DNA of 64,000 nt, from positions 1,747,371 to 1,811,370 of the forward strand of contig OZ245740.1 of the NCBI GenBank assembly GCA_965227305.1, written 5' to 3'. The DNA is from Limisphaerales bacterium. Lineage in GTDB: Bacteria; Verrucomicrobiota; Verrucomicrobiia; Limisphaerales; AAA164-E04. Every line of letters starts with the position of its first letter. The first letter of the stretch is position 1. Positions 88 through 54,435 of the stretch are shown in pieces. The translations under genes and the position numbers were made by a program. The notes under the pieces were generated by a model. That model had not been told where the DNA came from and did not search any database. It saw only the letters and a program-made list of their open reading frames with translations.

Positions 88-134
88 AACGGGGTCCTTA
101 CTCACCGTAGGCTCAGAGGGACGCTCTGGGTAGG

Positions 135-162
135 AACGGCTCGCGGGTACGCTCGCCCTACC
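135..162 (-). repeat. REP-like intergenic repeat unit, reverse copy
   Basis: aacggctcgcgggtacgctcgccctacc is identical over 28 nt to 13026-13053. Confidence 0.8.
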
Positions 163-270
163 GTCCGGAAGTGGAGCCTGTGGGAAAGTGCTTGGCTAGC
201 GTCGAGGGGGGCGACAAGATGACGGGGTTCCCCGTCAGGTCTCGAAACCAGTGGCGTGGGTTGAAGAGTT

Positions 271-2868: not shown

Positions 2869-2888
2869 AGCGGAACCGTGCGGGACGC

Positions 2889-3761: not shown

Positions 3762-3934
3762 GGATCTGCTGTTCGAGCGTGCGTCCGCAGTGACGCGTCG
3801 CTGATGTCAGCATGAAGCATGTCTCCGAGCGGGTCAACTGCTCGACGCTTTTGGAACTACGAATCCGAGTTCGGTTTTGGGACTGGAACTCGCGCGTCGG
3901 GGCTCATTTGAGGGCAGATCCGTGGGATTCTAGC

Positions 3935-4705
3935 CTATGGTGCTCGGTAGTAGGGGTCGAAATACTCCCATTCGAAGCGGCCCCGTTGGGCGCGGTGCAC
4001 TTTCTCATCCTTCCAAGATTCAATGTGCCCATCGATGAATCCCATGTTGATGCGGCCATTGTGCGTGACGAATTCACCTCGAGCCGCCGTTCCTCCGGGA
4101 GTGAAGCTGGCGTTTCGCATGGTTGCCGAATCCTCATTCACGAGGAGCACTTTCTGGCTCGGACTCGCGACGGCACTGGCTTTGACCCCCTTGGGCCCGG
4201 TGTTTTGCCGATTCGCCAAGGCAACGTTCCGGTCGATATGGGAGCTCATGCTGAAGTTAACGCGTTGGGCCTTGCCGATCCGGCCAGTGCTGGGACAGCG
4301 ATAGACTTTGTATTCGTTCGTATGCCGTGGGTTCAGTCGCACGCGCTCACCGCCCGTCACGTATGTGAATACCGATCCTGCCTCGGGGTGGAATCCATAG
4401 GTCAGCGATCGCCATGCCCGGGGACTGTTGGGTTGGGTGTCGGATTGTCCGCCCCAGACCCAGTCCGGTTGCAGATTGCGGTCGACGCCGCCACTCCAGG
4501 GGAGGTAATCGTTGTTGTCATCCAAATACATCAACATGCCCAGGGTGATCTGGCGCATGTTACTTTTGCACGCGGTCGAGCGGGCGCCTTCCTTGGCTTT
4601 CCCGAGTGCCGGTAGGAGCATGCCGGCCAGGATGGCGATGATGGCAATCACGACCAAGAGTTCGATGAGGGTAAAGGCGGCTCGGCGGCGGAAGAGTGGA
4701 TTCAT
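3935..4705 (-). CDS. DUF1559 (H-X9-DG) protein with prepilin-type N-terminal cleavage/methylation domain
   Basis: The ORF track gives 3935..4789. The internal Met at 4705 gives [34 protein letters not shown], the canonical type IV pilin-like leader and hydrophobic helix. The C-terminus has [13 protein letters not shown], matching the H-X9-DG signature. Confidence 0.85.
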
Positions 4706-4836
4706 AGGAATTGGTGTGGCGGTGGAATCGTTAATCCCGCCAATTTGGTGGAGAATTCGGGCAATGTCGATTCCTTTCGAGGGCGGCATCCGGTAGAAAA
4801 AGCTCTGAAAAAAACGTCCCTGGGGTCGCTCCCAAA

Positions 4837-4970
4837 GGTGGGGCGAGCGTGCCAGACCGGGTAAAAAATCCCGTTGGCAACTCCATCGCGGTGGTCAAAG
4901 CGACAGCTCTCTTACCTGCAGGTGGAAAAGGACTTTATACACGGTCTGATACCCGCGAGCCCTCGGCACG
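4837..4970. mobile_element. REP unit split by a 98-bp deletion derivative of the MITE (MITE body 4852-4949)
   Basis: ggtggggcgagcgt | g | CCAGACCGGGTAAAAAATCC...GGACTTTATACACGGTCTGA | ta | cccgcgagccctcggcacg. The two flanks reconstitute the REP unit around its central TA. The body matches the ends of the 177-bp copies but lacks the internal hairpin (~79 nt). Confidence 0.7.
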
Positions 4971-5126
4971 ATGGTGATCGTTAATCCGGAAAGGTCCGTG
5001 GCGTACAACGATAGGACCTCCAGCCTCGTTTCATGATTCCTACGCGTGTAGGTGAAGCGCTCGTTGAATTCTCTCTCAGCGGCCGCGGTGGCCAAGGCGA
5101 GAGCAAGCTCTCGCACTCCATGTTTT

Positions 5127-6950: not shown

Positions 6951-6978
6951 GGTCGCCAGGCTGCGGGAGCGTGGGGCG

Positions 6979-8160
6979 TTACGTCAACGGATGCAATTTC
7001 TCCTGGCCTTCGACGAACACGGCTTGAGGTTTTCCGGCTGCATCCAGGACTACTAGATCTGCTCGATATCCGGGTGCGATGCGCCCGAGATTCTTGAGTC
7101 CTAACGATTCGGCTTGGTTTAATGCCGTTGTCTGGATGAGATCTGAGAGGGGTAGGCCGGTAAGTTCGCGCACGTTCTGCAGGGCGCGATCCATGGTCAG
7201 TGTGCTCCCTGCGAGCGCGCCTGACGGCAATCGTGCCACGCCATCCTGGACGATTACTTCGAGCCCACCCAACTGGGTGCGTTGGTTGTCTGCGAGACCT
7301 GAGGCCGCCATGGAATCGGTGATTAACATCAGACGTTCCGGACCAATGATCTTGAAGGCAAGTTGGATCATCTCCGGGCAGAGGTGGATGCGGTCGCAGA
7401 TGATTTCAACCCGAACCGCATCGTCGAGCAAGCCAGCCCCGACGAGACCGATTTCGCGATGATGGAGCCGAGTCATCTGGTTGCAGAAATGAGTGAGGTG
7501 GGTGGCGCCAGCCGCGCGGGCGGCCTGAAACTGTTCGTAGGTCGCAGCTGTGTGGGCGAGAGAACTCGTGATTCCGGCCTGGGTTAGTGTTTGCACCAGT
7601 TCCAGCCCGCCGGGCATTTCGACCGCGAGGGATACGATTCGGATGGGCAGGATTTCATTGAGCGCTCGTAACTCGTTCCAATCGGGTGGCCGGACGTAGT
7701 CCGGGTTCTGTGCCCCGGTACAGTCGGGGTTGATAAACGGACCTTCGACATGAATACCCGCTACTTTAGCGCCGGTGGGATTCTTACAGTACGGTTCGCC
7801 CAACCGAAACGCTTGGGTCAGCTCGGCGGGTGGCAGCGTTAGTGTGGTCGGGAGGAACGTCGTGACGCCTTCGCGAATTTTGGCTTCGCCGATCGCTGCG
7901 AGCGATTCCGGATTGAGGTCGCAGAAATCGTGGCCGGCGGCACCATGGGTATGAATGTCGATGAAGCCCGGAACGACGGTGCTGCCCTGCGCGTCCCAAA
8001 CGACGGCAGAGGCGCCTCGTTCGGGAGTGGAGGCGTCAGCAACGGATTGGATCAATCCGTTTTCTAAGACGATCGTGGCTTGTTCCAGCTCCGTGCCGGG
8101 CGAGACCACACGGGCGTTTACGATATGGGTGGGGGCTGTCACAGGGTTGAGAGGAAGCAA
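6979..8160 (-). CDS. nagA: N-acetylglucosamine-6-phosphate deacetylase
   Basis: 393-aa ORF. Amidohydrolase metal motifs: GFIDIHTHGAAG, HVEGPFINP, LAHT..., ITDSMAA. The length and motif order are typical of NagA. Confidence 0.85.
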   Translation of the reverse strand: MLPLNPVTAPTHIVNARVVSPGTELEQATIVLENGLIQSVADASTPERGASAVVWDAQGSTVVPGFIDIHTHGAAGHDFCDLNPESLAAIGEAKIREGVTTFLPTTLTLPPAELTQAFRLGEPYCKNPTGAKVAGIHVEGPFINPDCTGAQNPDYVRPPDWNELRALNEILPIRIVSLAVEMPGGLELVQTLTQAGITSSLAHTAATYEQFQAARAAGATHLTHFCNQMTRLHHREIGLVGAGLLDDAVRVEIICDRIHLCPEMIQLAFKIIGPERLMLITDSMAASGLADNQRTQLGGLEVIVQDGVARLPSGALAGSTLTMDRALQNVRELTGLPLSDLIQTTALNQAESLGLKNLGRIAPGYRADLVVLDAAGKPQAVFVEGQEKLHPLT

Positions 8161-8306
8161 CGGCCCCTTTTCGTCGTCATCGACACGGCTGAGAACTGCG
8201 ATGCGAGAGGGCCGGCAGCGAACTGGAATTGAATTGGCAAAATGTTTTACAATGAGCTAGCACTGTCTTCGCGAAACGAGTAGTACGCTCTTTTGGAGCA
8301 TCGCTG

Positions 8307-9737
8307 ATGGACACCGTGAATGGCAAACAGATTTCGATTGACCCGCTACTAACCCCTCCTTTGGACGGCCAGTTTGAGCCGAGCGTTCTCTGGAACCGCA
8401 GTTTCCGCCAATCCGTGGCCGAGTCTGGAGGCGCGAGACCCCTTGCTTTGGGGGTGATGCACGGGGAACGCGTGCTGGGGCTTTTCGAGACCCAGCTGGG
8501 ACCGGATACCTTGGAGTGGCGGGCCGCCAATGATCACTATGCCGAGCGGTTGGTGAAGTGTCTCCTCTACAGTAAGGGCGGGCATCGGGTCGTGGTCGGA
8601 GGCGATAATGGATTCGCGGAGCGACTCCAAGCACGCTATCAGGCCGGGGGAACCCGCGCCTTTGATGCGGACCTTTTGGGGAAACAGATCTATCGGTCTT
8701 CGTTTGACGTCACTTCGTGTCCCGTCGAGGAGATGCCGAGTGACGTAGGTTCCGGAGATTCCAAGTTGGGTGGGCATCTGGACGGGTGTCGGATTGGGTT
8801 TGATCTCGGTGGGAGTGACCGGAAGGCAGCCGCCGTGATTGACGGGAAGGTCGTCTTCTCGGAGGAGATAACTTGGGATCCCTATTTTCAAGCTGATCCG
8901 CAATATCACTTTGACGGCATCTGCGATTCGCTGAAAAGGGCTGCGGCTCATTTGCCACGGGTGGATGCGGTGGGTGGAAGTGCGGCTGGGGTTTACGTGA
9001 ACAACGAAGTGCGTGCGGCGTCCTTGTTCCGTGGCATTCCCGAAGCCCGATTTGACGGGGCGGTGCGCCGAATCTTCTTTGATGTGATGTCGGCATTGGG
9101 CTGGGAAGACGTTCCTTGGGAGGTGATTAATGACGGGGAAGTCACCGCTTTGGCGGGGGCGATGGCGATTGATGATCACAGTCTCCTCGGTCTCTCCATG
9201 GGAACCAGTTTTGCCGCTGGCTATGTCACGCCCACCGGCAGTCTTTCCAGTGGCTTGAATGAATTGGCGTTCGTGCCGGTAGATCATCGCTTGGACGGAC
9301 CAAAGGACGAGTGGTCTGGCGACGTCGGTTGCGGAGTCCAATTCTTCTCGCAGCAGGGTATTGCCCGGCTCGCCCGGGGCGCGGGGGTGGATTTGCCCGA
9401 AGCGATGCCGCTGCCCGAACGCTTGATCCAGGTTCAGGAGTTAATGGAGCAAGGGGATTCTCGGGCAGAGGCTATTTATCGCACCATTGGTATCAATTTC
9501 GGTTATACCATTGCCCACTTTGCGGAGCTGTATGAACTCCGGCATCTCTTGATCCTGGGGCGGGTGACTTCGGGGGCGGGCGGCGAACGTATCTTGGAAC
9601 AGGCGCGCGCTGTGCTGGATCGGGAATTTGAATCGCTCTCCAGGCAGATCGCCTTCCATATTCCAGACGAAAAACAAAAACGACACGGCCAAGCCATCGC
9701 GGCAGCCAGCTTGGCAGCGCTCAAGGAATCGGCTTAG
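8307..9737 (+). CDS. ROK-like / ASKHA-fold sugar kinase or regulator homologue
   Basis: 476-aa ORF. It has IGFDLGGSDRKAAAV (phosphate-1-like), NDGEVTALAGA and LSMGTSFAAGYV motifs arranged as in ROK/glucokinase families. I saw no CxCGxxGC zinc motif, so the family assignment is tentative. It is divergent from nagA. Confidence 0.5.
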   Translation: MDTVNGKQISIDPLLTPPLDGQFEPSVLWNRSFRQSVAESGGARPLALGVMHGERVLGLFETQLGPDTLEWRAANDHYAERLVKCLLYSKGGHRVVVGGDNGFAERLQARYQAGGTRAFDADLLGKQIYRSSFDVTSCPVEEMPSDVGSGDSKLGGHLDGCRIGFDLGGSDRKAAAVIDGKVVFSEEITWDPYFQADPQYHFDGICDSLKRAAAHLPRVDAVGGSAAGVYVNNEVRAASLFRGIPEARFDGAVRRIFFDVMSALGWEDVPWEVINDGEVTALAGAMAIDDHSLLGLSMGTSFAAGYVTPTGSLSSGLNELAFVPVDHRLDGPKDEWSGDVGCGVQFFSQQGIARLARGAGVDLPEAMPLPERLIQVQELMEQGDSRAEAIYRTIGINFGYTIAHFAELYELRHLLILGRVTSGAGGERILEQARAVLDREFESLSRQIAFHIPDEKQKRHGQAIAAASLAALKESA

Positions 9738-9749
9738 GTCGAACCCAAG

Positions 9750-10817
9750 TCAGCGCTCGTTCTGTTGGAGTTGGGCAAGGTAGATCGCCGTCGTTTGGTT
9801 TCCGTTCTCGTCCGTCTCGTGGCTTGAATACCATGAGATCAGCGCTTTGGTGGGGCTCAAGGCAATGAACCCGGGATAGGAATTGTCGCCAGCAGAAGGG
9901 AGTTCGGCGAACTCGTGGATCTCACCTGCTTGGAACCAACCCAGAAACGTTTTGGGCCCTCGCGATTCGGTGAACTTGCGACCGCCGATCACCAAGCGTT
10001 TTCCCCACCGAATAAAGAGGGGGCCACCGATGTAGCGGTCGAGATCTTTCCGGACCCAATCCGTGTACGGGGGCGCTGCACGTAAGAATTGAGCCGTCCG
10101 GCTGCCTCGTCGGCCGATCGCGAGGATGGTGCCGTCGGGTTCGAAGAGGAAGGCCGTTTCGTCCCCGAATTCGGTCTGGAACAGACTGCGGAACCGCCAG
10201 TTCAATCCATCTTGGCTTTCCAAAAGAGCGGACTGGACGGCACGACCTTCGCCTTTTGGACCAACCGCAAAACCGGTTTTACGGCGACCGCACAGAAAAG
10301 CGCGTCCCTCATACGTGCTCGCTTTCCAGATGTAGTGCCCGAATGTGCCTTCGAGCGGTTTGGGATCCGACCACTGTCGCCCGTCGTGGCTCCAGACGGC
10401 GTAGCCCAGGTGTTGGTTCAAGTCGAATTGCCCGGAGGGATCGGCATACCAGGTCCCGGTGTAGACCAGGAGCCGGTCTTGAAACGCCAGAAAATGAGGA
10501 TCCCGCGGATCGCGCTGTGGAATCGAGAATTGGTGAACGAGATGCCATTCCTGCGTGTCTTCGCTCGATAGAATCAGAACGGAGGCACTGTCATTGACGC
10601 CGTGACCATCCGGACAGCTGCGAAAGGTCAGGTAGTAGCGATCGTGATAACGGATCAGATCCGTGAAGGCGTTGTGTTCCCCATTGTCGAAGACCTGACG
10701 GATCTGAGTGACGGATACGGTTGGGGACTCACCGGCCAAGAGCGAGAAGCAACTCGTGGCTGCGCTCAGGACGAGAGCGATAAAGGGGAGAGAGTAGCTT
10801 CGCATGGTTATATTCAA
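9750..10817 (-). CDS. Secreted BNR/Asp-box beta-propeller protein (sialidase-like glycoside hydrolase candidate)
   Basis: 355-aa ORF with a signal peptide (LPFIALVLSAATSCFSLLA). It has Asp-box-like S-x-D-x-x-x-W motifs (SSEDTQEW, SHDGRQWS, SQDGLNWR). Confidence 0.55.
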   Translation of the reverse strand: MNITMRSYSLPFIALVLSAATSCFSLLAGESPTVSVTQIRQVFDNGEHNAFTDLIRYHDRYYLTFRSCPDGHGVNDSASVLILSSEDTQEWHLVHQFSIPQRDPRDPHFLAFQDRLLVYTGTWYADPSGQFDLNQHLGYAVWSHDGRQWSDPKPLEGTFGHYIWKASTYEGRAFLCGRRKTGFAVGPKGEGRAVQSALLESQDGLNWRFRSLFQTEFGDETAFLFEPDGTILAIGRRGSRTAQFLRAAPPYTDWVRKDLDRYIGGPLFIRWGKRLVIGGRKFTESRGPKTFLGWFQAGEIHEFAELPSAGDNSYPGFIALSPTKALISWYSSHETDENGNQTTAIYLAQLQQNER

Positions 10818-39879: not shown

Positions 39880-42800
39880 GTGAAGCACCGGATATTGGCA
39901 TCAATGGATTTTGGCTGGGGACGTCATCTTCCCTTTGCGGCCCCGTTGCTCGTGAAACGATGCTTGGCATCATGGAGTTCCCTTGCGTTACTGGCCTTTC
40001 TTCTGAGTCCCAGCATCATTCTTGCACAGCCGGTTAATGTTCCTGCCTTTCTGAGTGACCTGGATGGAGACGCGCGGACTACCGTTCGCGACTTCGTGAT
40101 TCTTCAGAACCACCTCAGCGGAGACACTATTTTGCAGGAAGATCGGGTGTTCGCAGCCGATCTCAACCAAGATGGTGTGATTGATGGCCTTGATGCCGAT
40201 ATCTTACTCGATATTGTTATGGGTCGCCTACGCCCGCCGGCGACTCCGTTGGCCCGAGTGTTGACGACCTCACCGAAGGGCGGCGAGGACGGGGTCGCTT
40301 TAAGCAGGGAGACCATCGTAAGGCTGAGTTTGCCGCTGGCGGAAGATCTAGTCCTGCCGGACAATGCGATTCGTGCGGAGTTCGCCGGACAGGTGGTGCC
40401 AGGGCAACCCCATCTTAGTGCGGATCGACAAACGGTTACCCTGTTTTATCCAAGCGGTTTGCCGGCGTCGGCCCGTGTCCGGGTGACAATCGATGGCGGC
40501 TTGATGCGGGATTTACGAGGCTCACTCGTGGATGCTGATGGAGATGGCGTTCCCGGTGGAGAGCTGAGTGTCGATTTCGACACACTTACCGTCACCAGTC
40601 TTCCGGATACTTCGGTTTGCGGGCGCATTTTTGCTTCGGACCTGGCTGTTAGCGAGAACGGGAGCCGGTTCGTGAATCGTCCCTTAGCCGGTGTCACGAT
40701 TCGAGTCGATGGGACGGACCGGCTCGTGGTGACGGACGAAAATGGCAATTTCCGGTTGGAAGAGGCCCCGGCTGGAGAATTTTTCGTGCATATCGATGGC
40801 CGGACCGTCCCGGACGTCGTCCCTGCGGGCGCCTATTACCCCAATGTTGGCAAAGCTTGGGTATCTGTGCCCGGCATCGAAACCAACATCGGCGAGATTT
40901 ATCTGCCCCTGATTCCTGCGGATGCTTTGCGGGAGGCTTCGACGGAGTCGGACACGGTATTGGAATTCACGCCCGAGTTTGTGGTTCAGAATCCGAAATT
41001 CAACGGGGTCCAAGTCGTTGTGCCGCCGAATTCCTTGTTTCGTGATGATGGGACTCGCGGCGGGCGAGTGGGGATCGCACCCGTTCAGCCCGATCGGCTT
41101 CCCGGGGAGGTCGCAAGTGATCTTCCCATCCAAGATGTCGTGACCATTCAGACCGACGGGGCTACGAATTTTGATATTCCCGCACCGGTTTGCCTGCCCA
41201 ATCTGGAAGATCCGCTCACAGGCCGACGCTTGGGACCGGGAGAGCCAGCCGCGCTTTGGAGCTTTAACCATGACTTGGGACGTTTTGAGATCGTGGGATC
41301 CATGACCGTCAACGAAGACGGGAGCCTGATTTGCACGGATCCGGGGGTTGGCGTATTGGCGCCGGGCTGGCATGGCAGTAGCACGGGAACTCAGGGAGAG
41401 GGGGGAACCTTGCGTCATGTCATTCTCGATCGGAGCAAACAAGAGAAACCCGGGAAAAATGACCCTTCCGCTGATCCGGACAATAAGGTGACGATTCCCT
41501 GCCCGGACAATCCAAACCGGTATGTGAACCTTTACAAAAATCGCCGCCGTCCCCAGTCCAATCCCGAGGCTAAAGGCGGGGATCCGGTGTACCTGCACTC
41601 CGGAGAGTTTTATGAGAATATGGTGGATTTGCGGATTGCAGGGCGCGGTATGGACTTCATCTGGAGTCGCAAATATCGATCGGTAACGGGACGGCCAACC
41701 GTTCAGGGCAACAATTGGGACTATTCTTACAACATTTTCATTCGTGCCGAGGGGAATGATTTTCTCTTGTGTGACGGGAACTCCAGAGCGGATATCTACA
41801 CGTTGCAGGATTCCGGCGTTTGGACAGCTCCGGGCTTTTTCCGAACTCTCGAAGCGAATCGGGACGGGACTTATACCTTGCGATTTGAACACGGCGGGCG
41901 GTGGGTGTTTCACCCCGTGGACGGGCGCCCGGAGTCCGGCCGGATTCTCATCAGCGAGGAGCGGAACGGGAATCAATTGCGGTTCCGATATGACTCCCAA
42001 GGACGGCTCTCCGGAATCGTGGACTCGCTGGATCGTTTGATTGAAGTGTTCTACAACGGGGACGGATTCATTCGCGAGGTGCGTGACTTTGCGGGACGAT
42101 CGATTCGTTATGAGTATTTCGGTCGAAACGATCCAGACGGCAATTTTGGCGATCTTCGATCCGTGACCTTGCCGAGCGTCACGGGAACGCCCAACGGGAA
42201 CGATTTCCCAGACGGTAAAACAACGACCTTCACCTACTCAACCGGACACTCAGATGCCCGATTGAATGGGAACCTCCTCACGATCACCGACGGGAGGCGC
42301 AACGATCCGAATGACCCCGCCTTTGAGCAAGGTCCGTATCTGCGCAATGAATACGCGCCGACAATCGACCCGGAAGATGTCAACTTCGATCGGATCATTC
42401 GACAGGTTTGGGGCGATCCGGATGATATTCTCGACTATCACTACACGGCGCTATTGCCGTCGAACGCCAATCGCAGGGCGGTTAACAAGACCATCGTGAA
42501 CGATCGTCGCGGATTGGTGATGGAATACCTCTATGATGAGGCGAATCGGCTCGTTAGTTATCGAGAATTCACCGGGTTTGCCGTTCCGGATCAAGTCACA
42601 ACGGAAACCGACAATCGGCCTACTGGAAAACTCAGAGCCACCGATCCCGACTTTTTTGAAACCGTACACGAGTGGAACGCGGATCACTTACTAGTGCGAA
42701 CGATTCAGCCGAACGGTACGATCATCGAAAAAGTCTATGAAGGGGATATCAACCCCAATGCTGGCCCGCGAACCCGGTCCAATCTGGTTGCAACGCGCTT

Positions 42801-45800
42801 GCTTCCCGGGAGCCATCGACCGGCAGGGGATCAAGTGGTCATCGAGGAATTCTACGAATATGACACCGCGTTCGCGGGCTGCTGTGGTTTCAATTTCGTC
42901 ACGAAGTATACCGATGCTCGGGGGAATACTACCACGCACGACTACGATGAACGAGGTAACCGGATCCAGACTATCCATCGGGTGCCTTCCATCATTCATC
43001 GGTATGAGTATAACGAGTTTGGTCAGCTCTCCGCCGAGGTCTATCCGGACAACGACGGCGTTCGCCGGCGAGACGAGTGGGCCTACTATGAGGAAGGTCC
43101 TCAACGCGGATACCTGCGTCAGATAACTCGGGACGTGGATGGTTTCGCGCTGACCACGGTCATGGACTACGATCGCGTGGGCAATCCCGTCGCGACAACG
43201 GACGCCAAAGGCAATACCCAAGAGTTCGTGTTTAACCAACTGGATCAAATGGTGCGTGAGATCTCACGGCCGGTATCAGCGACCCTAAACGTCCGCTATG
43301 TTCAGGATTACTTTTACGATGCGAACAACAACTTGATTCGAGTGGATGCGCCCAATGTCGACCACCTTGGGGATGTCGGTAGCAATGCTTCATACACCAC
43401 GACCTATGAATACGAGATCTTGAACAATCTCATTCGAACGGCGCAGGAGATACGCGAGGGTGAGTTCCGAGTAACCGAGACTGTATACGACGCGAATCGG
43501 AATCGAATCTTGATGCGGTACGGCGAGGCGACCAACGGCAACCAAACCGACAATACGACGAGCTGGGATTTCGATGAGCGTGACTTGGTGATCCGTCTGA
43601 TTCAAGGGAAGGGAGGAGCGGATCAATCGAGCTTTGAGTTCGACTACGATCCGAACGAAAACCTGATTGTGGAGCGGTATGGAATCGAGGACGCCAAGCC
43701 TCAAATCACGTCTCGAATTTTTGATGGCTACGATCGGCCCGTGGATGTCACGGATCCGATGGGGAATCGAACCACCTACGAATACGACGCGAATCACAAT
43801 CTCGTGCGACACGTGAAGTATGGGGAACTGAATGATCAGCCGGGTAGTGCCGGCAATGTGAAACTGTTTGCGGAAAATGCGAGCTATGATCCGTTAAACC
43901 GTCTGACCCGGACGGATACCGAATTCTTTGAAGTTGGGACCGGACGGCCATTGGGCGACGGACTTTCGACCATGCAGTATCGGTATAACAACAGTAGTCT
44001 GTTGGTGGCGACGATCGACGATAATGGGAACCGCACGGTACGAGACTATGATTCGTACTACCGACCTCGCCGGGTCGTCGACGCACTTGGTAACGAGGTG
44101 ATCTATGACTATGATCAACTGTCAAATGTTGTCCGGGTGACAGAGAGAGACCTGCCCGACTCCGGAGGTGAGGCAGAGGTTTATGTGGAACGATTCGATT
44201 TCGATCATCTGAACCGTGTGATTCGGTCCATCGATTCAATTGGTAATACTTCGGAGCTCGGCTACGACTCCCGGAATAACTTGACCTACAGGAGCGATGC
44301 GAACCGCGTTACCCCGAACCAACCAGGGAATATCGTTCGCAATGAGTTTGATGGTCTCCGGCGCCATATAGCCACGGTGTATGAACTAACAGCCGATGGC
44401 CAAGGCGGCACGCCCACTGGGACCATCCGGACCGAAACCGTATTTGATCACTCAGATAGAGCCGTCGGCCGCATTGACGGAAATGGCAATCAAACGACCT
44501 ATACCTTTGATGGGCTTAATCGAATGACGGGAACGAGGTTTGCGGATGGGACGACAGAAGAGCGGACCTACAACGCGCATTCGAATCCGATCATGTGGGT
44601 CGATGCGAATGGCACTACGATCGCGACTGAGTATGACGAGCTGAATCGCAAACGACGATGCGAAATCACACCCGGTGCTGGGGTGTCGAGCGATACGACG
44701 TTTGAAGTTTTCGATTTTGACGGATTTAGCCGACTGCGTCGGTTTGCGGATGATGATTCTTTGGTTGAGAGAGAATACACGTCTATGTCAGAGATTCTTC
44801 GAGAATCGTTAAATGATGTCGTTACCTCGGCCGAATATGACGGTATGGGGAATATGCTACGGTGTGTGTACCCGTCGGGCTTTGAAACGCTCATGTCCTA
44901 TGACGGGATCAATCGCCTGACTCGTATAGATGACCGTCTTGGATTGATCGCCGATCCGAGCTACGTGGGGCGCCATCGTACGAAGCAGTGCGTGCTGGGG
45001 AACGACACCGTCACCTCTCATGAGTATGATAGGGATCGGCGTCGAATCGGTATCGAGCACCGAATGCCGGGAAGCGGGGTGTTTGACCAACGACGCTTCG
45101 CTTGGGATAGCATGGACAATAAAATCCTGCACCGTGACGAATTGTCGGGAGAGAGCCTCGAGTTTGCCTACGATTCTGTCTACCGATTGACGTCAAGTGG
45201 GCTTAGTGATACGCGGCAGGCCTATCACTATGATTCTGTTGGGAATCGCACGCGAGTTGATGGCGGGGCGTTTTCCGGAAGGTATGAACTGGATGCGGCA
45301 GTTGACGGTCCGGCAGATCGGCAAGTAAATCAGTACACCGTCACTCCGTCTGGGATTCGCCGCTACGATGCCAAGGGCAATTTACTGACAGTGGGCGATG
45401 CGCAAGAATCTTTCACTTACGACTATCGCAATCAGTTGGTTGCCTTTGCGAATCCAAGCCTGGGGCAAAAGAGCACCTATCGATACGATGCTTTAGGGCG
45501 CCGGATTGAGCGCAGTTTTGGCTCAGGACAGACGGTTAAGTACTACTATCAAGGGTCCCGAGTCCTTGAGGAGCGTGATGCGGCCGGTCGCATGAATCGT
45601 CAGTATGTGTATGGCCGTTACATTGACGAGGTGGTTAACATGCGGACGGATCAGGAGAGTTTCTACTATCATAGCGACGACACCTTCAACGTTCGTAAAA
45701 TAACGGATAGTAGTGGGGCCGTGGTTGAAAGCTATGACTATGATGATTTCGGCATGCCTGTTGTTGCCAATGGTGAGGGACTATCGGTAGGTGAATCTCA

Positions 45801-46551
45801 AATTGGGAATACCTTGTTGTTTAATGGGCGGCGATTTGATGTTGAGACGGGGTTCTATTTTTACCGATCTCGCTACCTTGACCCACGGGTCGGCCGGTTC
45901 ACAAGTCGAGACTATATCGGCACATGGGGAGATCTTGGTAACATGGGGAACGCGTTTTCCTTCGTAGCGAATAATCCGAGGACCTTGCTGGATCCAACCG
46001 GAATGGAGCCACTCGACGGCGAACGGCGGCCGTGGGATAAAGATACGCCTACGGGAACGCAGGGGCACTTTCATTGGCGGCCGTTGCATGGTGAGGTAGA
46101 GAATGGGTGGGTAGAGTGGACCACGCGGAGTGCAGGTTGGTGGTTCAGCGGCTTACCTGAGGAGGTTAAGATGAATTGGATTTACGCCCATGAACACTAC
46201 TTTGAGGGCACCTACGATGAATCGAAGCCGAGGGATGGCCACATTGGTTTTGGCGGGGAAGACCCCGAGTATCTATCGGAATACAACGAGCAGAGTCCGG
46301 GCTCATATTCGGATGATGTCATGCGGGCGGCGCGGGACATGATTGATAAGGACTTTACCGACGGGAGCTATGGGATTCCCTTCCATAATTGCCAGCTTTA
46401 TGCTGACGAATTGCGAAGGTGGTATGACTTGTTCTTGAAGGCTGTTTGTGAAGAATCGTCCACGAGCTTATCGAAGAAAGACAGGTGGTTTATCCGAGAG
46501 CTTTGGGTGAGTCGGTTTGGTGACGTCGACATCGTTAGTGAAAAGGAGTAG
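39880..46551 (+). CDS. RHS/YD-repeat polymorphic toxin with Sec signal, N-terminal dockerin-like module, Ig/carboxypeptidase-regulatory-like domains, RHS core and a divergent 181-aa C-terminal domain
   Basis: 2223-aa ORF with a GTG start. Hydrophobic leader [18 protein letters not shown]. Dockerin-like paired Ca loops ([20 protein letters not shown] / [20 protein letters not shown]). VCGRIF...[10 protein letters not shown]...TDENGNFRL (CarboxypepD_reg-like). Dozens of YD repeats (..YDANGN.., ..Y.YD..). RHS-associated core [33 protein letters not shown]...[31 protein letters not shown], ending in LLDPTGM. Confidence 0.9.
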
Positions 46552-49198
46552 GACAATTAAGAGGCGGAGTGGCTACTGTTGGTTTGCCCTGTTGGCATGC
46601 CTTGCTCCGCTGTGTTTGTTGGCTCAGGACGGTAGTGTGGTTCAATCCGGTCTTCACTACTTCGGCGTTCAAAACCGAGCTACAGGAGAATTTGTCCAAC
46701 GGGGTGAGGCTGGCGCCAACGGCGTAGCTTTCGATCGATTGATTCTACCGGCGGAGCAGAGTTTTCGCATTTGGGTGCTCCAAGGTGAGACCTTCTTCTT
46801 GGGCTATGTGGATGTGACAACCCCTCCCAACGGCCAACGGTGGCAGGTGCCACCGATTGATCTGGGACAGTCGATAGCCGGTGATCGGGATGGGGATGGC
46901 TTGCCGGACGATGCCGAGCTGGTGCTTGGAACGTCGCCGAACGATTCGGATTCGGATGGCGATGGCGTCTCCGATAGCGCTGAAGTAAGGCAGGGATCAG
47001 ATCCGCTGGATGGCACGCCGACGCGGACGGGAATCCTCGGGACCGCCGACACTCCGGGCACCGCAGTGGATGTGTGCGCATTTAATGATCTCGTCGTGAT
47101 TGCAGACTCCGCTCGTGGGGTGGCTGTTTTCAACGTTTTTAACGGGATGAGCCCACTCATCGTCGCGCAAGTGGAGACGCCGGGCACGGCCCGTTCTGTG
47201 GCACTGGCGGATCAACTGATTGCGGTGGCCGATGGTGAAAGCGGTCTCGCCGTGATCGATATTACAGATCCGCCAGCGGCGAGGATTGTCCAGCAAGTGC
47301 CGTTTTCATCCAATGCCTTTTCGGTTGCGTCCGATGGAGAGATCGGGTTAGTCGGCCTGGAATCCGGGTTATTGGTAGCGGTCGATCTCCGAAGTGGGGG
47401 GGTATTGAGTCAACTCCAACTGGGAACCCGGCTCGTGGAGGATGTCGTTTTGTCTGGGGACCACGTGTTCGCCTTGTACCAGGGGAACCTCGGCGTTCTG
47501 CGGATGGTTGATGGGGCGCTGGAGGTGGTGTCATCGGTGGTGTTGCCGGACTACGCGATTATTGGACATGATCGCGGACGACTTTTTGTAGGGGGCGGTG
47601 TGGCTTATCCCGTGAATTCCCGAGGGTATCAGACGGTCGATATCTCCAGCCCGGCAGAGCCAACGCTGATCGCAACGGGGCGGACGTCTCAGGTGGGATG
47701 GAAGCAGATTGTGTTGAATGGTTCCGGTTTGGGACTGGCGGCTGTGGGAGTGAATCCCAGGCTGGATGCCACGGCCCATGTCTCTCTATACGACGTGTCG
47801 AATCCAAGCGACAATGATGTTTTTCTGACACAGTTTGAGACGCCGGGGTTTGCTCGCGCCGTGTCGATTTACAATGGCATTGGCTATGTCGCTGATCATG
47901 CTTCGGGATTGCAGGTTGTGAACTATCGGGCTTTTGATTCCCAAGGAGTAGCGCCAGAGATTGCGATCACCACGAGCCTTGAGGGCAGTCAAGCGGAGGA
48001 AGGGAAACGGTTTCGGATCACCGCTGACGTGAGTGATGATGTGCAGGTAAGGAACGTCGAGTTTTACGTCGATAGCGTGCGGGTTGCGACGGATGGTAAT
48101 TTTCCTTTTGAAGTGCGTGTTCCGGCGCCGTTGATTGTCAACCAGAACCGCTTTACCGTTCGGGCCCGTGCGAGTGATACGGGTGGTAATGCGACATTCT
48201 CGGAGAGCCTGACCTTTGATTTGATCGAGGACGCAACACAGCCGCGCTTGGTCCGAACTTTTCCGGAACGTGGGTCGGCACTTGGATCTGTGAATCGGGT
48301 CAGTGCGACGTTTTCGGAACCGATGGCTGTGAGTTCCTTTACTGCTTCTACGTTCGAACTGGTAAATGCGGGGCCGGACGGTGTCCTCAATTCCGGAGAT
48401 GAGCTTTTGATCCAGGGCGGGATGATTCGCTATTCGGATGTCTCCAATACGGCCATACTTCAATTCGAACAGGTATTGGAAGCCGGTCTCTATCAGGCAA
48501 GATTGGCTCAAACGATTACGGACCGATCAGGACTTCCTTTGCGCAATCCGGAACAATTCTCCTTCCGAGTGTTTGGGATGGCGGATGGGGATAACGATGG
48601 CGTTCCCGATGAGCTTGAAGTGACTTTGGGATTGGACCCCTTGAATCGGGACACCGATGGGGACGGGGTTCTGGATGGTGATGAAGACTTTGATGAAGAC
48701 AATTTGCCGAACGTGGGCGAAGTGCTCTTGGAAACGAATCCGGCCTTAGCGGATACGGACCGTGACGGGATTCTTGACGGCGATGAAGACTCGGACGGGG
48801 ATCTGCTGACGGACGGTCGGGAGATATTGCTTCGCACGAATCCCCGCATGGTGGACACAGACATGGATTCCTGGCCGGACAACGACGAGGTTGAATCCGG
48901 CGGCGACCCCTTGGATCCTCGTGTGATTCCGCCAATTCTGATTGTCGCCGCCCCTCCAACGACAACGGTGTTACCCGGAATCGGGAATACTGAGTTTGCT
49001 GTGGGGCTTGTGGTGGCCGCGCCTCCGATTTCTGCCGTAATTCCCGGTGTTGATATCGAAGCGAGTATTGGCGTTGGGGTGACGGTGGCCCGGCCGCCCG
49101 TGTCGGCCGTGTTACCTGCCGTAGGGCCGGTAGCGGGTATCGACTTTGGTATTACGGTCGCGGATCCGCCCGTGCGGGTCCAATTGAATTCTCAGTAG
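46517..49198 (+). CDS. Secreted LVIVD-repeat beta-propeller protein with thrombospondin type-3-like Ca-binding repeats, Ig-like domains and a C-terminal ~24-aa tandem repeat
   Basis: 893-aa ORF that overlaps the RHS 3' end. The likely start is GTG at 46538, giving [37 protein letters not shown]-type motifs: [48 protein letters not shown]-x-D-x-DG-x-x-D runs occur at ~46.87-47.0 kb and ~48.58-48.9 kb. Confidence 0.7.
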
Positions 49199-49200
49199 CG

Positions 49201-50460
49201 TTGACGAGTATGATGACAAACTTACCTGACTCTTTAAAATGGATGCAATGTCTCGGGCGGCATCGATTGAACCGGGGTGCGATTACGCACGTTGGGCTCG
49301 TGGCGGTGTTGTTCCTAGCAACCCCTCTCTATGCGCAATTCAGCTCAGGGAGCGATGGCTCCGACGGTGCCTTGGCGGTCACGGGGAACCGGGTTCTGGA
49401 TCTCCCGGATGACGGCCGATTCAACTTTACCACCGTAACGATTGAGGAGGGAGCCACACTCAGTTTCAATCCGAATCCGAAGAACACTCCCGTATACGTG
49501 TTGGCGAGTGGTTCGATCATCGTTAACGGAACGGTACATGTAAACGGAGGGACGGGGGATTCGGTCAATGGGGGTGTCGGTGGTCCCGGAGGTTATGGTG
49601 GCGGACAACCCGGGTTCAACGAACTCCCGCCTGGGGCGGGATTAGGGCCGGGTGGCGGGCTGGGAGGGGCCCCAAATCGAGATGGCGCTGGGCCTGGGGC
49701 TTACTTGAACGCCGGAAATAATACGCGCGACGAGAATCTCCAGCAGGGAGTCCCCTACGGTACGCCTCTGTTGGTTCCAATGGTTGGCGGCTCCGGCGGT
49801 GGAGGGACGGCTGGATCCCCTGGTGTTGGTGGTGGGGGCGGGGGCGGCGCTCTGTTGATGGCTTCGGATGAATCAATCACGGTTGGCCAGATGGGACGGA
49901 TTGAAGCGCGTGGCGGTTCAGATGGGGATAGTAATGACTTCTTTGCACCAAAACACGGTGGGAGCGGCGGGGCCGTCCGGTTGGTTGCGCCCTTGATCCA
50001 GGGAACGGGACAGGTCAATGTGGAAGCTTTCATAAGGGGTTTTGCCGGGGATGGGCGGATCCGGATTGATGCGGTGGATCGCCGCCAGTTCAACTTGGAA
50101 TTGGTCCCGGCGCGCTCCGTGTCCGTGGGCGTATTGATGGCGGTTGATCCCGGTGTGTTGCCGCGGTTGGACATTCTCCAGGTAGCGGATCAAGTGATTC
50201 CCGAAGGTTCGGTGCCTCCCGAGACATTTATTTTACCGATCGGTTCGCCTGCTGAGCAGATCGTTCGGGTGCAGGCTCGCGATTTTCGGGGATTGATACC
50301 GATCCTGGTTCGGTTGATTCCAGAGAATGGGGTTCCCGTCGACTTTGAAGGAACGATCGATATGGCGACGGGCAATCCGGCCACGACGGACGTGGCTGTC
50401 ACGCTTCCTTTGAATACGGGAGTTCGTGTGCAGGTGTGGACTCGGGATGCCGAGGAGTAG
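49201..50460 (+). CDS. Secreted glycine-rich protein of unknown function (beta-helix-like N-terminal part)
   Basis: 419-aa ORF that starts 2 nt after the upstream stop (TTG at 49201, or ATG at 49210). Signal helix VGLVAVLFLATPLYAQ. Gly runs: GGVGGPGGYGGGQPG, GGSGGGGTAGSPGVGGGGGGGA, HGGSGGAVRL. Confidence 0.6.
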   Translation: MTSMMTNLPDSLKWMQCLGRHRLNRGAITHVGLVAVLFLATPLYAQFSSGSDGSDGALAVTGNRVLDLPDDGRFNFTTVTIEEGATLSFNPNPKNTPVYVLASGSIIVNGTVHVNGGTGDSVNGGVGGPGGYGGGQPGFNELPPGAGLGPGGGLGGAPNRDGAGPGAYLNAGNNTRDENLQQGVPYGTPLLVPMVGGSGGGGTAGSPGVGGGGGGGALLMASDESITVGQMGRIEARGGSDGDSNDFFAPKHGGSGGAVRLVAPLIQGTGQVNVEAFIRGFAGDGRIRIDAVDRRQFNLELVPARSVSVGVLMAVDPGVLPRLDILQVADQVIPEGSVPPETFILPIGSPAEQIVRVQARDFRGLIPILVRLIPENGVPVDFEGTIDMATGNPATTDVAVTLPLNTGVRVQVWTRDAEE

Positions 50461-50463: not shown

Positions 50464-52302
50464 GTGGCGTATGGACGGGATTCCGACTCAATGAACCGCG
50501 CACGGGAAAGTAATCTTCTCGCCGCAGCCTGCCATCTGGGAGCGGTTGTGTTAACCCTATTGGGTGTTGGTGTCCCGTCGGTAAGGGCTGCCACGATCTT
50601 GGACGTGGGGGAAGCGGTTGCGCCCAAGGGGGCGACGGTCGTGGTGGATATGGTGCTGACTTCAGACCAAAATGTCGCAGCCCTGCAGTTTGACTTGTTG
50701 TACGACAATCGTCGACTGACTACCGAGTCTACCCGTTTGAGTCAGGCCCAAACACGGCACACGGTTGATTCTCGGGATGTGGCTCCGGGGCGCCTTCGGG
50801 TCGCGGTTTATCCGTCAGCGAATGCAGTTCTGGCGGATGGTCCTTTGGTTTCGTTGCCCTTCGTTATCGCACCGAATGTTGGTTCTGGGGAACTCCCGTT
50901 GACCCTGGATGTCGCTCAAGTTGTTTTCTCGACAGTCGCGGGGCAATCGATCTCGGCAGATGAGCTTTTGAATGGGGCGATAACCGTTGATGAAACTGTT
51001 GGTGTTTTTCGAATTGCCGGTCGGGTTCATTATTTTGGCGGTGGGAACGAACCGTTGCCGGAGATCCGCCTGCGTCTACTCGGAGCGGACACCATTGGGA
51101 CCGATACGGATGCCGAAGGCCGATTCGAGCTATTGGCCAACGGAGGCAATGACTATCGGTTGGAGGCGGTGGCGCCCGGGATCCGTCTCGCGCCCGAATC
51201 CGGCGTAGACGTGGGAGATCTCGTGGCATTGCGTAAACATCTACTCGGTTTCGGCGATATCGATTCCCCCTTTGGCGCATTGGCGGGGGATGTCGATGGG
51301 GATCGAGCCCTCACCGAATTGGACGTGGAGCGAGTTCGGGGAATGCTTCTAGGCGAAGCGACAACGCTGCAGGGTTCGGTGGGCGTGGCCGGTGAGTCCC
51401 TCTTCTTCTTGCCGTCGGACCTAAGTTTTGTAGACCGTCGGGATCCGTGGGGTGCTCTTGGGGCAGCCAACGCGAACGCGGTCCGGCGAATCTCCGGACT
51501 GGGGAACGCACGATTCGGTGAAGATTTCGCCGGAATCAAATTGGGAGATGTCAACGGAGACTGGCGGTCCGTGGGCACAGAGTTGCCTCTGGAAACCCCA
51601 AGCTCTGGCTTTGGATCCGTTGAACTGCGTCTGAGATCGGGCTACGGGGTGCCGGGCGGAGAGATCCGTCTGCCGCTGTTTGCGGAAAGTTCGGATCCCT
51701 TGCTTGGTCTCCAATTTGATCTTGGCTGGGACCCATCCGTGTTGCAGTTCGATCGGTTTGAAAATGTGCGTCTACCTGGGTTTGACCCCGCGATTCACAC
51801 TGCCGAGGGGGCGGAACGAGACCAAGTGCGTGTGGTGTGGGCGGACCCAATTGCTTTAGGTCTTCAAATCGGGAGTGCGGAGCCGGTGTTGGAACTGGTG
51901 TTCCAGGCGGTAGCGGATGCGGAACTCGGGGCGGCCTCGCGCGTTGATTTCTTGGGTGGATCAACTCAAGTGTTGGGTTACGGTTTTGACGGCCGACAGG
52001 ATATGCAGGCCCAGGACGCGATTGTGGTTTTGGCGGCTGCGCCTGACTTCGACAATATCGTGTCGGTTGGTGATGCGGTTCTAACTCGCTTCGTCCCGGG
52101 TGAGACACTGGAGCTCTGGGCATTCGCGGAAGATGGCCGCACCTACATTCTTGAGACGACCCTGTCCTTTAGTGATCCCAATTGGGAAGAAATCGCTCAA
52201 GCCGTAGCTGCCGATGGTCTCGTCGAGTTTTCCGTAGCGGCAGATGCCGCTTTCCAGCGTTACTTTCGACTGCTCGAATTAGCGGCGGAAAACAATCCAT
52301 GA
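50464..52302 (+). CDS. Secreted protein with two cohesin-like domains, a carboxypeptidase-regulatory-like domain and a dockerin-like segment (scaffoldin-like)
   Basis: 612-aa ORF (GTG at 50464, or ATG at 50491) with a signal peptide. Cohesin-like blocks: GATVVVDMVLTSDQNVAALQFDLLYDNRRL... and GGEIRLPLFAESSDPLLGLQFDLGWDPSVLQF... Dockerin-like segment: DLVALRKHLLG...GDVDGDRALTELDVERVRGMLLG. Confidence 0.7.
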   Translation: MAYGRDSDSMNRARESNLLAAACHLGAVVLTLLGVGVPSVRAATILDVGEAVAPKGATVVVDMVLTSDQNVAALQFDLLYDNRRLTTESTRLSQAQTRHTVDSRDVAPGRLRVAVYPSANAVLADGPLVSLPFVIAPNVGSGELPLTLDVAQVVFSTVAGQSISADELLNGAITVDETVGVFRIAGRVHYFGGGNEPLPEIRLRLLGADTIGTDTDAEGRFELLANGGNDYRLEAVAPGIRLAPESGVDVGDLVALRKHLLGFGDIDSPFGALAGDVDGDRALTELDVERVRGMLLGEATTLQGSVGVAGESLFFLPSDLSFVDRRDPWGALGAANANAVRRISGLGNARFGEDFAGIKLGDVNGDWRSVGTELPLETPSSGFGSVELRLRSGYGVPGGEIRLPLFAESSDPLLGLQFDLGWDPSVLQFDRFENVRLPGFDPAIHTAEGAERDQVRVVWADPIALGLQIGSAEPVLELVFQAVADAELGAASRVDFLGGSTQVLGYGFDGRQDMQAQDAIVVLAAAPDFDNIVSVGDAVLTRFVPGETLELWAFAEDGRTYILETTLSFSDPNWEEIAQAVAADGLVEFSVAADAAFQRYFRLLELAAENNP

Positions 52303-52410: not shown

Positions 52411-52932
52411 TTGTTTTTGATGAATCGCAAGACGAGGGACATTCTTAGCGAGCTTGAGAGTTATCTCTGGTTTTCGAATGTGGGAAACCGTTCGGAAGTG
52501 GGAGACGTTACTTTTGTTGATTCGTGGGGAGCGGCAGTCGCGAGTTGTGCGAGCCGTAAGTGGGAAGACTTTCAACAAGATATCCACAATTACTACATCA
52601 GAAAAGTAGGGGCCCATATCCACGAGGGCGCGGAACGTTGGAACGCCGTCTTGAGTGAGGTGGAGAGTCGGCTGGCGGTGCATGCATTTCCCGTTGTGGA
52701 AAAGATGGCGTCAAATCTCGAATTGCCTCAGGTCTTCGTTGATTCGGTCAGGTGGGACGTGCTTGGTATTTGTATGGAAGTGGAATTCTCGGATATCACA
52801 CCGCCATTTTTTTTCGCGGCAATTGTGAGGGAGTGCTACCGGTCTGGGCATTTTCCCTGCGGTTGGGATGGCCCCGATTTGCCTGACGGATGGTGCGGGA
52901 ACCTCAGCTTGGGCAAGCTGATTGTCTATTGA
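52411..52932 (+). CDS. Hypothetical cytoplasmic protein (candidate immunity-type protein by context only)
   Basis: 173-aa ORF; the likely ATG is at 52420 (MNRKTRDIL). No signal peptide. C-terminal GHFPCGWDGPDLPDGW motif. It sits in a visibly AT-richer stretch downstream of the RHS operon. I recognise no family. Confidence 0.5.
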   Translation: MFLMNRKTRDILSELESYLWFSNVGNRSEVGDVTFVDSWGAAVASCASRKWEDFQQDIHNYYIRKVGAHIHEGAERWNAVLSEVESRLAVHAFPVVEKMASNLELPQVFVDSVRWDVLGICMEVEFSDITPPFFFAAIVRECYRSGHFPCGWDGPDLPDGWCGNLSLGKLIVY

Positions 52933-53451: not shown

Positions 53452-54435
53452 ATGGTTTTTCGCACGGTGGTGTCCGTATTTTTCTTTTGTTTCGCGTCAG
53501 ACCTGTTGGCGGACCGAATCTTTGCTATTAATGTCGGTGAACGGGAACTACGAGAGTTCGACGTAAGTGGTAACCTTGTCCGTTCGTTGAATGATGGTGC
53601 GCCGGCCCCTGTGGGCAAGCCACTTTACGCTCCCTTCGACGTCCTGGTAACCAACAGTGGTGACATCCTAGTCTCCCAGCGAAGCAGGAGCATCGGGTAC
53701 TTCGAGATCCGACGTTTTAATAGCGACGGGAGCGAGATTCTTCCGTTTACCTCAAGTCCCATAAACCGAATGGGAGGGACACGCGGGATGGCGCTTAGCC
53801 CCAGCGGGAACATCTACGTGGCGAGTGGTGGTGGAGGGAGTTTTGATTTCATTATGGAGTTTAGCCCGGATGGACCGGATCTTGGGAATATTATTGGGGA
53901 CACCGAGTCGGGACTAAATTTCCATTCACCAGCCATCATTGCCGTCGATTCGCAGGGTAACATTTATTTGGCTCAAAATTTTAATGGGGGAAGAGTTCTC
54001 AAATTTGATTCGAACGGAACGTTTGTTAGCACGGTGGCTGAAGACATCAATACCTATGGAATGGATGTTGACAGCAATGACAACCTGTTTGTGGCCGCCG
54101 CCGTCGGAGGGAGTTCGTCCATTCTTAAATATGGTTCCGATGGCACATCGCAAGGGACGTTTGTAGACGGTTTGGGGCTTACGGTGAGCATTGAATTTGG
54201 TCCCGGTGGCAATCTCTATGCAGCCGATGCGACGAATGACAAAGTACTTTCTTACCGGCCAGATGGAACTTTGGATTTCAGCTTCGGAGTCGATGGGGAA
54301 CTTGGTGCGATCGGAATTGGCGCCTCTCCCGTTCCTGAAGTGAATGCACAATTCGTGGTAATGGGCCTTTTCTTGGGCGGTTTTGTGGTGTACCTGCGGC
54401 GGTCCAAGAATTGTGTTGCTTCGAATAAGCTTTAG
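53452..54435 (+). CDS. NHL-repeat six-bladed beta-propeller protein with PEP-CTERM-like C-terminal sorting signal
   Basis: 327-aa ORF with AAAGGAG ~17 nt upstream and a signal peptide. Repeated ..P.G(I/V)A(V/L)D..GN(I/L)YVA.. blades: SPSGNIYVASGG, VDSQGNIYLAQ, VDSNDNLFVAA, GPGGNLYAADA. C-terminal PVPE + FVVMGLFLGGFVVYL + RRSK. Confidence 0.65.
   Translation: MVFRTVVSVFFFCFASDLLADRIFAINVGERELREFDVSGNLVRSLNDGAPAPVGKPLYAPFDVLVTNSGDILVSQRSRSIGYFEIRRFNSDGSEILPFTSSPINRMGGTRGMALSPSGNIYVASGGGGSFDFIMEFSPDGPDLGNIIGDTESGLNFHSPAIIAVDSQGNIYLAQNFNGGRVLKFDSNGTFVSTVAEDINTYGMDVDSNDNLFVAAAVGGSSSILKYGSDGTSQGTFVDGLGLTVSIEFGPGGNLYAADATNDKVLSYRPDGTLDFSFGVDGELGAIGIGASPVPEVNAQFVVMGLFLGGFVVYLRRSKNCVASNKL

Follow-up and report, generated by a model that had tools for sequence, protein, structure and literature searches.

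What does the C-terminal tip of a giant secreted RHS (rearrangement hotspot) protein act on, and why does no immunity gene follow it? The question is raised by a 64,000-nucleotide stretch of Limisphaerales DNA (contig OZ245740.1, positions 1,747,371 to 1,811,370; "the window" is this whole stretch), in which the open reading frame (ORF) at 39880-46551 on the + strand encodes an RHS protein of 2223 amino acids (aa). An initial annotation, made from the letters alone, had noticed a 181-aa tip behind the RHS core and its boundary motif, had likened a His...Cys signature in the tip to permuted papain-fold enzymes (PPPDE, LRAT, NlpC/P60), and had remarked that no small immunity ORF adjoins it. The observation is confirmed and the interpretation is partly supported. 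The tip is best explained as a divergent member of a previously unannotated polymorphic-toxin domain family of ~135 aa, referred to here as 'HE...NCQ', and as an envelope-directed Cys/His enzyme that may be a very distant permuted papain-like one; taken as a whole, this explanation has, in our estimation, about an even chance of being correct.

The placement of the tip is straightforward. RHS/YD repeats (PF05593, E 1.8e-48) preceded by DUF6531 (PF20148) lead to a C-terminal Rhs_assc_core domain (TIGR03696; Pfam and NCBIfam) that ends at residue 2042 with a DPxG(L/M) boundary. The end of this core agrees with the TccC, YenC2 and Tse5 chains, and by analogy with other RHS proteins the window protein would cleave itself at the boundary. 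The N-terminus is a Sec signal followed by a dockerin, and no PAAR, VgrG or SpvB domain was detected on the protein. The protein and the parts of its tip are as follows.

39880-46551, + strand: RHS protein, 2223 aa; in order, signal peptide, dockerin, Big_5, CarboxypepD_reg-like, DUF6531, many RHS repeats, Rhs_assc_core and tip (Pfam/NCBIfam).
45970-46005, + strand: end of the RHS core with the DPxG(L/M) boundary; the tip starts directly after it.
46006-46548, + strand: C-terminal tip, 181 aa, residues 2043-2223, as first annotated.
46060-46476, + strand: conserved toxin domain within the tip, family profile positions 1-134 (G000:C1:1793430-1793846 in the window's genome, E 9.7e-31).
46189-46197, + strand: HEH motif; His2104 (46189-46191) and Glu2105 are family-invariant, and a catalytic role is predicted for His2104, which lies on a β-strand.
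46309-46332, + strand: SDDVMRAA helix, counterpart of the family's (N/D)DC(V/I)MR.A, with Asp where most members have Cys.
46384-46401, + strand: HNCQLY motif, Asn-Cys-Gln invariant; Cys2171 (46390-46392), at the N-terminus of a long helix, is the predicted nucleophile.
46477-46548, + strand: lineage-specific C-terminal tail, whose SRFGDVD(I/V) motif (46510-46530) is shared with the ortholog P0004 alone; it stands in place of the C.C tail of most family members.

Direct searches with the tip find no match in Pfam, NCBIfam or the sequences of the PDB, and with the full RHS protein as query, a word-indexed search returns nothing beyond the protein itself. An exhaustive HMMER search with the tip against 1.84 billion representatives gives 5 matches. 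The true relatives are P0004, a 2278-aa RHS protein with the architecture of the window protein, and P0005 and P0006, which are short C-terminal fragments of RHS proteins; the top matches, P0002 and P0003, are spurious, being repeat proteins aligned over low-complexity stretches. Profile searches extend the family to 36 and then to 122 clusters, nearly all of them C-terminal ends of RHS proteins, and the window tip matches the family profiles with E values of 3.3e-77 and 9.7e-31. No Pfam domain or NCBIfam model falls on the tip in any family member. A sizeable family of toxin tips (at least 120 clusters) that current annotation misses entirely is now defined, and its candidate catalytic residues are clear.

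The family motifs run in the order AYFA.RPL, N.E..HE(H/Q)LFF.DG..P.N.GYF, (N/D)DC(V/I)MR.A, Y.LL and (Y/H)NCQ(D)Y...LR..Y. The near-invariant residues are R, H-E, D, G, D..M..A, N-C-Q, R and Y; the H-E and N-C-Q columns are invariant or nearly so in alignments of 18 to 119 members. The window domain begins at GHFHWRPL, which is the AYFA.RPL strand of the family. It retains every near-invariant column, and its His...Cys signature is for that reason more than a chance resemblance. The His of HEH and the Cys of NCQ that the initial annotation had singled out are these same invariant positions, and the order it had given, His before Cys, holds throughout: 67 residues separate His2104 from Cys2171, and the spacing across the family is 67-72. 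Three further Cys (C76 and a C-terminal C.C pair) are conserved in most members and would be compatible with a domain that works outside the cytoplasm. The window tip belongs to a minority subgroup that has DD and HNCQ where the others have DC and YNCQ, and that also lacks the C.C pair which accompanies the DC cysteine in most members.

Most of the family resides in gut Kiritimatiellia. Named genome matches are to Kiritimatiellia metagenome-assembled genomes (MAGs) from sheep, horse and human gut, together with one Bacteroidales and one Desulfocapsaceae MAG; in the phylum of the window the domain is present in 10 of 401 sampled genomes, some of these tips being of the typical Kiritimatiellia type, and one of the genomes that bear such tips matching a named Kiritimatiellaeota MAG at 83% DNA identity along a short stretch. 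The genome of the window encodes FtsZ (locus L040, G000:C1:405213-405473, with an FtsZ_C match above the cut-off), a protein missing from classical Planctomycetia; the host is thus probably no planctomycete but one of the Verrucomicrobiota as GTDB defines them. That the domain is also in use outside RHS proteins follows from P0131 and P0118, one of which has an extra C-terminal Tox-WTIP segment while the other lies behind a DUF637 (CdiA-type) region. In other genomes the tip also occurs as an orphan RHS cassette within arrays (L002, L003, L046). The L046 array (1-10088) opens with a main gene that has a TseH-type tip (PF25218) and Imm58, followed by orphan RHS cassettes; one of these is family member P0083, with a 209-aa protein of two transmembrane (TM) segments behind it. 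In gut metagenomes the tip is often borne by short "mini-RHS" proteins (~375 aa) that each have a signal peptide of their own (L001 6001-7131, L004 4325-5443).

The genes behind the tip in these relatives bear on its target. A small membrane protein is encoded directly behind the tip in ~23 of the 27 homologous loci with readable downstream DNA, its gene usually overlapping the tip gene or lying a few bases away (TM segments were called by a simple 19-residue hydropathy window). The initial annotation had expected immunity of the small cytoplasmic type; the immunity candidates of the relatives are membrane proteins, and they form at least seven groups unrelated in sequence. By locus, the downstream proteins are these.

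L001, L002, L004 and L009: ~338 aa, with a signal peptide and four C-terminal TM segments.
L006, L008, L010 and L029: 131-149 aa, with four TM segments.
L012, L025, L026, L028, L031, L033, L034, L036, L037, L045 and L046: 81-237 aa, with two to four TM segments.
L007 and L011 (two copies): ~190 aa, with an N-terminal anchor.

Because the immunity candidates of the relatives are membrane proteins, the target of the toxin probably lies in the envelope or membrane; by analogy, the tip family is probably an envelope- or membrane-acting Cys/His enzyme that resembles Tox-Act1 in function. The consistency with which the partners are of membrane type makes an envelope or lipid target a testable prediction.

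Tox-Act1, an effector of the Salmonella type VI secretion system, is a permuted NlpC/P60 phospholipase that is toxic only in the periplasm and whose immunity protein has two TM helices (PMC12994826, PLoS Biol 2026). The likeness between the tip family and Tox-Act1/Imm-Act1, with the relatives TseH, DUF4105, LRAT and YiiX of the permuted NlpC/P60 group, is threefold. Both toxins occur in polymorphic-toxin contexts (type VI and type V secretion systems); both have a conserved His ahead of a conserved Cys (His2104 and Cys2171 in the window tip, in a presumed catalytic role); and both have a small membrane immunity protein, which is true of the tip family as a whole and not of the window locus. 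An immunity protein of the Imm-Act1 kind leads one to expect a toxin that acts on the membrane from its periplasmic side. There are also differences. The His-Cys spacing of Tox-Act1 is 108 (H43, C151) versus the 67-72 of the tip family; TseH and DUF4105 have no match among the 25 most-hit Pfam families listed for tip members; the window RHS protein is predicted to be Sec-exported, no PAAR domain having been found on it; and the Foldseek search of the PDB with a homologue model gave no match with an E value below 2.

A mechanism can be proposed on these lines. The RHS protein would be exported through its signal peptide and perhaps anchored, via its dockerin, on a cohesin protein of the same operon. 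The tip would be enclosed by the RHS shell and released by a cut after DPTGM. In the target cell it would work on the outer side of the cytoplasmic membrane, as a hydrolase or acyltransferase of the Cys/His type, with membrane lipids or another lipid-linked envelope molecule as its substrate. Membrane-embedded immunity proteins would block it at the membrane, as the two-helix immunity protein does with Tox-Act1. The domain itself may have, by a weak link, a very distant permuted papain-like fold of the PPPDE/LRAT type.

What, then, protects the producer? At the window locus nothing of this kind follows the RHS gene. Directly behind it there is neither a small ORF that has at least two hydrophobic segments nor, as first noted, a small cytoplasmic one, and the 3' end of the RHS gene is overlapped by the gene of an 893-aa secreted protein. 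The downstream genes are the following.

46538-49198, + strand: secreted LVIVD/TSP3/Big_7/Big_5 protein with a signal peptide, 893 aa when read from the TTG at 46517 (alternative start, GTG 46538); it overlaps the RHS stop codon and is not of immunity type.
49201-50460, + strand: secreted glycine-rich protein, 419 aa, syntenic in the ortholog locus (45% identity).
50464-52302, + strand: cohesin/dockerin protein, 612 aa, a possible docking partner of the RHS dockerin.
52411-52932, + strand: ORF of 173 aa, earlier put forward as a displaced immunity gene.

The last of these is an unlikely immunity partner since it lacks any TM-like segment and nothing in the ortholog locus (L013) corresponds to it; it also has no family match and no paralog in the genome, and the suggestion is rejected. 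Between 38 and 57 kb of the window no ORF has two or more TM-like segments except that of a 327-aa NHL protein at 53452. (This NHL/β-propeller protein, at 53452-54435, ends in ...PVPEVNAQFVVMGLFLGGFVVYLRRSKN, which resembles a sorting signal of the PEP-CTERM type.) In the 10.6-Mb genome of the window, no homologue was found of any of 17 immunity candidates of the family (E above 0.29).

The ortholog shows the same arrangement. The window protein (P0001) and P0004, from locus L013 of another MAG, are colinear over their whole length at 35-58% identity; their tips, at 37-40% identity, have diverged about as much as their shells. P0004 is followed by orthologs of the 893-aa gene (46% identity) and of the 419-aa gene (45% identity), and no small membrane ORF is found at L013. 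Colinearity, the equal divergence of tip and shell, and common synteny together indicate that the tip has been inherited vertically with its RHS shell and with the LVIVD and Gly-rich genes behind it. It belongs, in this lineage, to the stable make-up of an operon for secreted proteins and is not an exchangeable cassette: the variation of tips between related shells that marks RHS toxins is not seen here, the ortholog bearing the same tip.

The genome of the window holds a second, paralogous operon (G000:C1:9765553-9775013; locus L044, 554-10014). Its RHS protein (C1:9765553-9772437, 2294 aa) has a core end 61% identical to that of the window protein and a different tip of 196 aa, GPHAYITV...IYNCWWAT, which has a His and an IYNC motif and no Pfam match. 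Next come an 859-aa LVIVD paralog, whose start overlaps the RHS stop in the letters ATGA, and a 693-aa ORF; here too no small immunity ORF is found. The paralogous tip was considered as a further member of the 'HE...NCQ' family and was set aside, its similarity not being significant (P 0.02). Four more RHS core ends in the genome have unrelated tips (G000:C1:7390181, 132706, 7586610 and 685138), one each being glycine-rich and hydrophobic, equipped with an HEAVH zincin motif, Cys-rich, and 275 aa long. A small ORF comes soon behind the tip in three of these four loci (7390181, 7586610, 685138); at the locus with the zincin motif there is none within ~340 bp.

The window protein thus shares with classical RHS toxins (Tse5, RhsA, the Tc toxin TccC) the RHS shell, the Rhs_assc_core domain, the DPxG(L/M) boundary and a variable tip behind it. 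Unlike them, it begins with a Sec signal and a dockerin, and in this lineage it has no adjacent immunity gene and a tip that is not polymorphic. The cognate immunity gene that directly follows other RHS toxins is missing here, and this is a real and conserved property of the lineage that suggests non-kin targets, intrinsic insensitivity or domestication. If there is no immunity gene, the producer would have to be intrinsically insensitive or its targets not kin.

This bears on the strongest of the rival explanations, namely that the RHS protein of this lineage has ceased to be a weapon against kin and is now a surface enzyme, domesticated in the manner of teneurins, or else a toxin directed at eukaryotes or unrelated bacteria. 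It is favored by the absence of an immunity-type ORF from the window, the ortholog locus and the paralogous operon alike, by the genome's lack of a homologue of any of the 17 candidates, by the equal rates at which tip and shell diverge within a conserved RHS-LVIVD-Gly-rich gene order, and by the small ORFs that lie behind other RHS genes of this genome. Toxins without immunity genes were interpreted by Zhang et al. (2012) as aimed at distant targets (PMC3482391), which also counts in its favor. Against it, all the conserved residues are kept, so that the enzyme is probably active, and the immunity proteins of the family are so diverse that a homology search would miss one encoded elsewhere in the genome. 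On balance we regard it as somewhat unlikely. It concerns the role of the protein and not its chemistry, and can be compatible with an envelope-directed Cys/His enzyme. Copies that are conserved by vertical descent and lack an immunity gene make this genome a natural case in which to study how an RHS toxin might be employed with no self-protection.

To return to the envelope-directed enzyme, the chemistry of the tip can be approached through its predicted structure. For the L001 homologue, an AlphaFold run on 119 sequences yields a confident model (predicted local distance difference test, pLDDT, 87.4; predicted template modelling score, pTM, 0.82). Its elements are, in order, a strand at 2-8 (AYFA.R), a short helical hairpin, a strand at 32-38 that bears His33, strands at 46-49 and 67-73, a helix at 75-84 (DCVMRKAV) and a helix at 105-119, of which Cys105 is the first residue. 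The layout in this model, where the presumed nucleophile heads a helix and a strand bears the His, is of the papain type. The window tip itself, with 27 sequences, yields a weak model (pLDDT 52) with the same order of elements; the Foldseek result for that model was discarded as meaningless.

Is the domain, then, related to the permuted papain-like enzymes that the initial annotation had named? The 119 family members were scanned singly against Pfam, and families were judged among the 25 most-hit that were listed. Sub-threshold matches to PF05903 (PPPDE) occur in 4 of the 119 (best E 0.0049) and to PF04970 (LRAT) in 3 (best E 0.0021); the window tip has no PF05903 match at E values up to 10, and so falls short of the gathering score for PPPDE. 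The one PF05903 match that was inspected, in P0136, covers profile positions 93-117 only, which are the Cys motif. With an LRAT profile based on 10 genomic sequences from the window's phylum, HHalign aligns the family over the helix-Y.LL-NC part only (P 0.005, probability 7%); the score of 21.9 exceeds those of all 120 column-shuffled controls (10.9 +/- 2.0, maximum 17.6). This alignment does not take in both the H-box and the NCEHF motif of PF04970.

A second His-then-NC tip family exists on RHS proteins of this phylum. It is seen in three near-identical RHS tip cassettes within 16 kb (L041, L042 and L043; G006:C1:3855211-3871400), whose tip, GWHKRICV...YSILGQNCRDFS, has a sub-threshold PPPDE match (E 1.5e-4). 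This PPPDE-like tip aligns with the 'HE...NCQ' family much as LRAT does (P 0.002).

The comparison with each known group is accordingly mixed. Like PPPDE/DeSI proteins (PF05903, Peptidase_C97), the tip family has an N-terminal His, a C-terminal Y.LL..NC motif and a spacing close to the about 70 residues between His and Cys in DeSI-1. Unlike them, it has no fold match and reaches no better than the E value given above, short of the curated cut-off and over the Cys motif alone; moreover, PPPDE proteins are mostly eukaryotic cytosolic isopeptidases, and PF05903 is all but missing from the window's phylum (one sub-threshold match in 401 genomes). With the LRAT/PLAAT (H-box/NC) acyltransferases and phospholipases (PF04970) it shares an NC motif that opens a helix and has a helix and Y.L before it, and the lipid substrates of LRAT enzymes would be compatible with membrane immunity. 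It differs from them in having NCQ(D/L)Y where they have NCEHF, in lacking a C-terminal membrane anchor and a fold match, and in its dissimilar His half. Recurrent likeness over a short motif, a compatible order of elements and the spacing are suggestive of homology to the permuted papain-like enzymes, to which the fold search lends no support; homology is not established. If the link is true, the newly recognised class of lipid-directed NlpC/P60 toxins reaches Planctomycetes-Verrucomicrobia-Chlamydiae (PVC) bacteria and Sec-exported RHS proteins.

Several points weigh against the reading of the tip as an envelope-directed, distantly papain-like enzyme, and they are best taken together. The similarity to LRAT and PPPDE is confined to ~25 residues around the Cys, and the His-bearing half gives no signal against the LRAT profile (8.7, versus 8.3 +/- 1.9 for shuffled controls). 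The confident model is that of a homologue with only 26% identity to the window tip, whose own model is poor. With the homologue model, Foldseek found no similar fold among 350,542 PDB chains (best E 2, TM score ~0.2) and none in BFVD (viral). The fold search called for by the initial annotation was thus carried out with the homologue model and returned neither a papain-like nor any other fold; no papain-like chain, DeSI included, is listed among the PDB results, in a comparison that does not allow for circular permutation. What stands of the initial papain-fold proposal is the choice of the invariant His and Cys, their order and spacing, the sub-threshold matches, the LRAT score above the shuffles, and the Cys that caps a helix with the His on a strand. 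The TM calls come from a simple hydropathy window and not from a dedicated predictor; the activity, target and compartment of the tip are predictions only; and, with no immunity gene found in the genome, this copy might have no antibacterial toxin use at all.

Some of these same facts are the substance of the next rival, in which the domain has a new fold unrelated to papain-like enzymes, its NC motif is convergent, and it acts on membranes in another way (on lipid-linked wall precursors, or by binding and disruption), with the conserved His, Glu, Asp and Cys making up an active site of another kind or a metal site. A confident model without a fold match and a His half unlike that of LRAT speak for it, as do the invariant Glu beside the His and the conserved C76 and C-terminal C.C, which could make a disulfide or bind a metal. 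Pore-formers and toxins directed at lipid II, too, typically have membrane immunity. Yet the helix-Y.LL-NC match recurs independently with LRAT, with PPPDE and with the PPPDE-like RHS tip, above every shuffled control in the LRAT case; the placement of Cys and His is of the papain type; and most members have at the third position of HE(H/Q) a Gln, which is a poor metal ligand. We consider this rival unlikely. About equally unlikely is its combination with the change of role discussed above: a new-fold Cys/His envelope-targeting enzyme without a solved relative, borne on a vertically inherited RHS protein which has no immunity gene and would be displayed through cohesin and dockerin in a conserved operon (in two paralogous copies), either as a weapon against non-kin such as grazers and unrelated bacteria or as a domesticated surface RHS protein comparable to animal teneurins.

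The weakest rival, in which the tip is, in line with the initial annotation, a peptidase or deamidase genuinely of the PPPDE/DeSI or NlpC/P60 type that cuts a peptide bond of protein or peptidoglycan and is not lipid-directed, can appeal to the His-then-Cys order, to a spacing near that of the DeSI-1 dyad, to the four sub-threshold PF05903 members with P0136 aligned at positions 93-117, and to the fact that periplasmic peptidoglycan amidases are common toxins, but is improbable: no Pfam match reaches the cut-off, Foldseek recovers neither DeSI nor NlpC/P60 structures, membrane immunity fits a cytoplasmic protein target poorly, and polytopic membrane proteins are frequent among the immunity candidates, unlike the soluble periplasmic immunity proteins of peptidoglycan-amidase toxins (Tae/Tai pairs).

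Three other assignments were considered for the tip and rejected. Tox-HDC, which occurs on RHS proteins and has conserved H, D and C, has, by its published description, a caspase-like alpha/beta fold, and the 25 most-hit families listed do not include its Pfam model. A deaminase-like reading (HAE...PCxxC) and an HxH metal site both founder on the position of the His on a strand and on the Gln that mostly occupies the third position of the motif.
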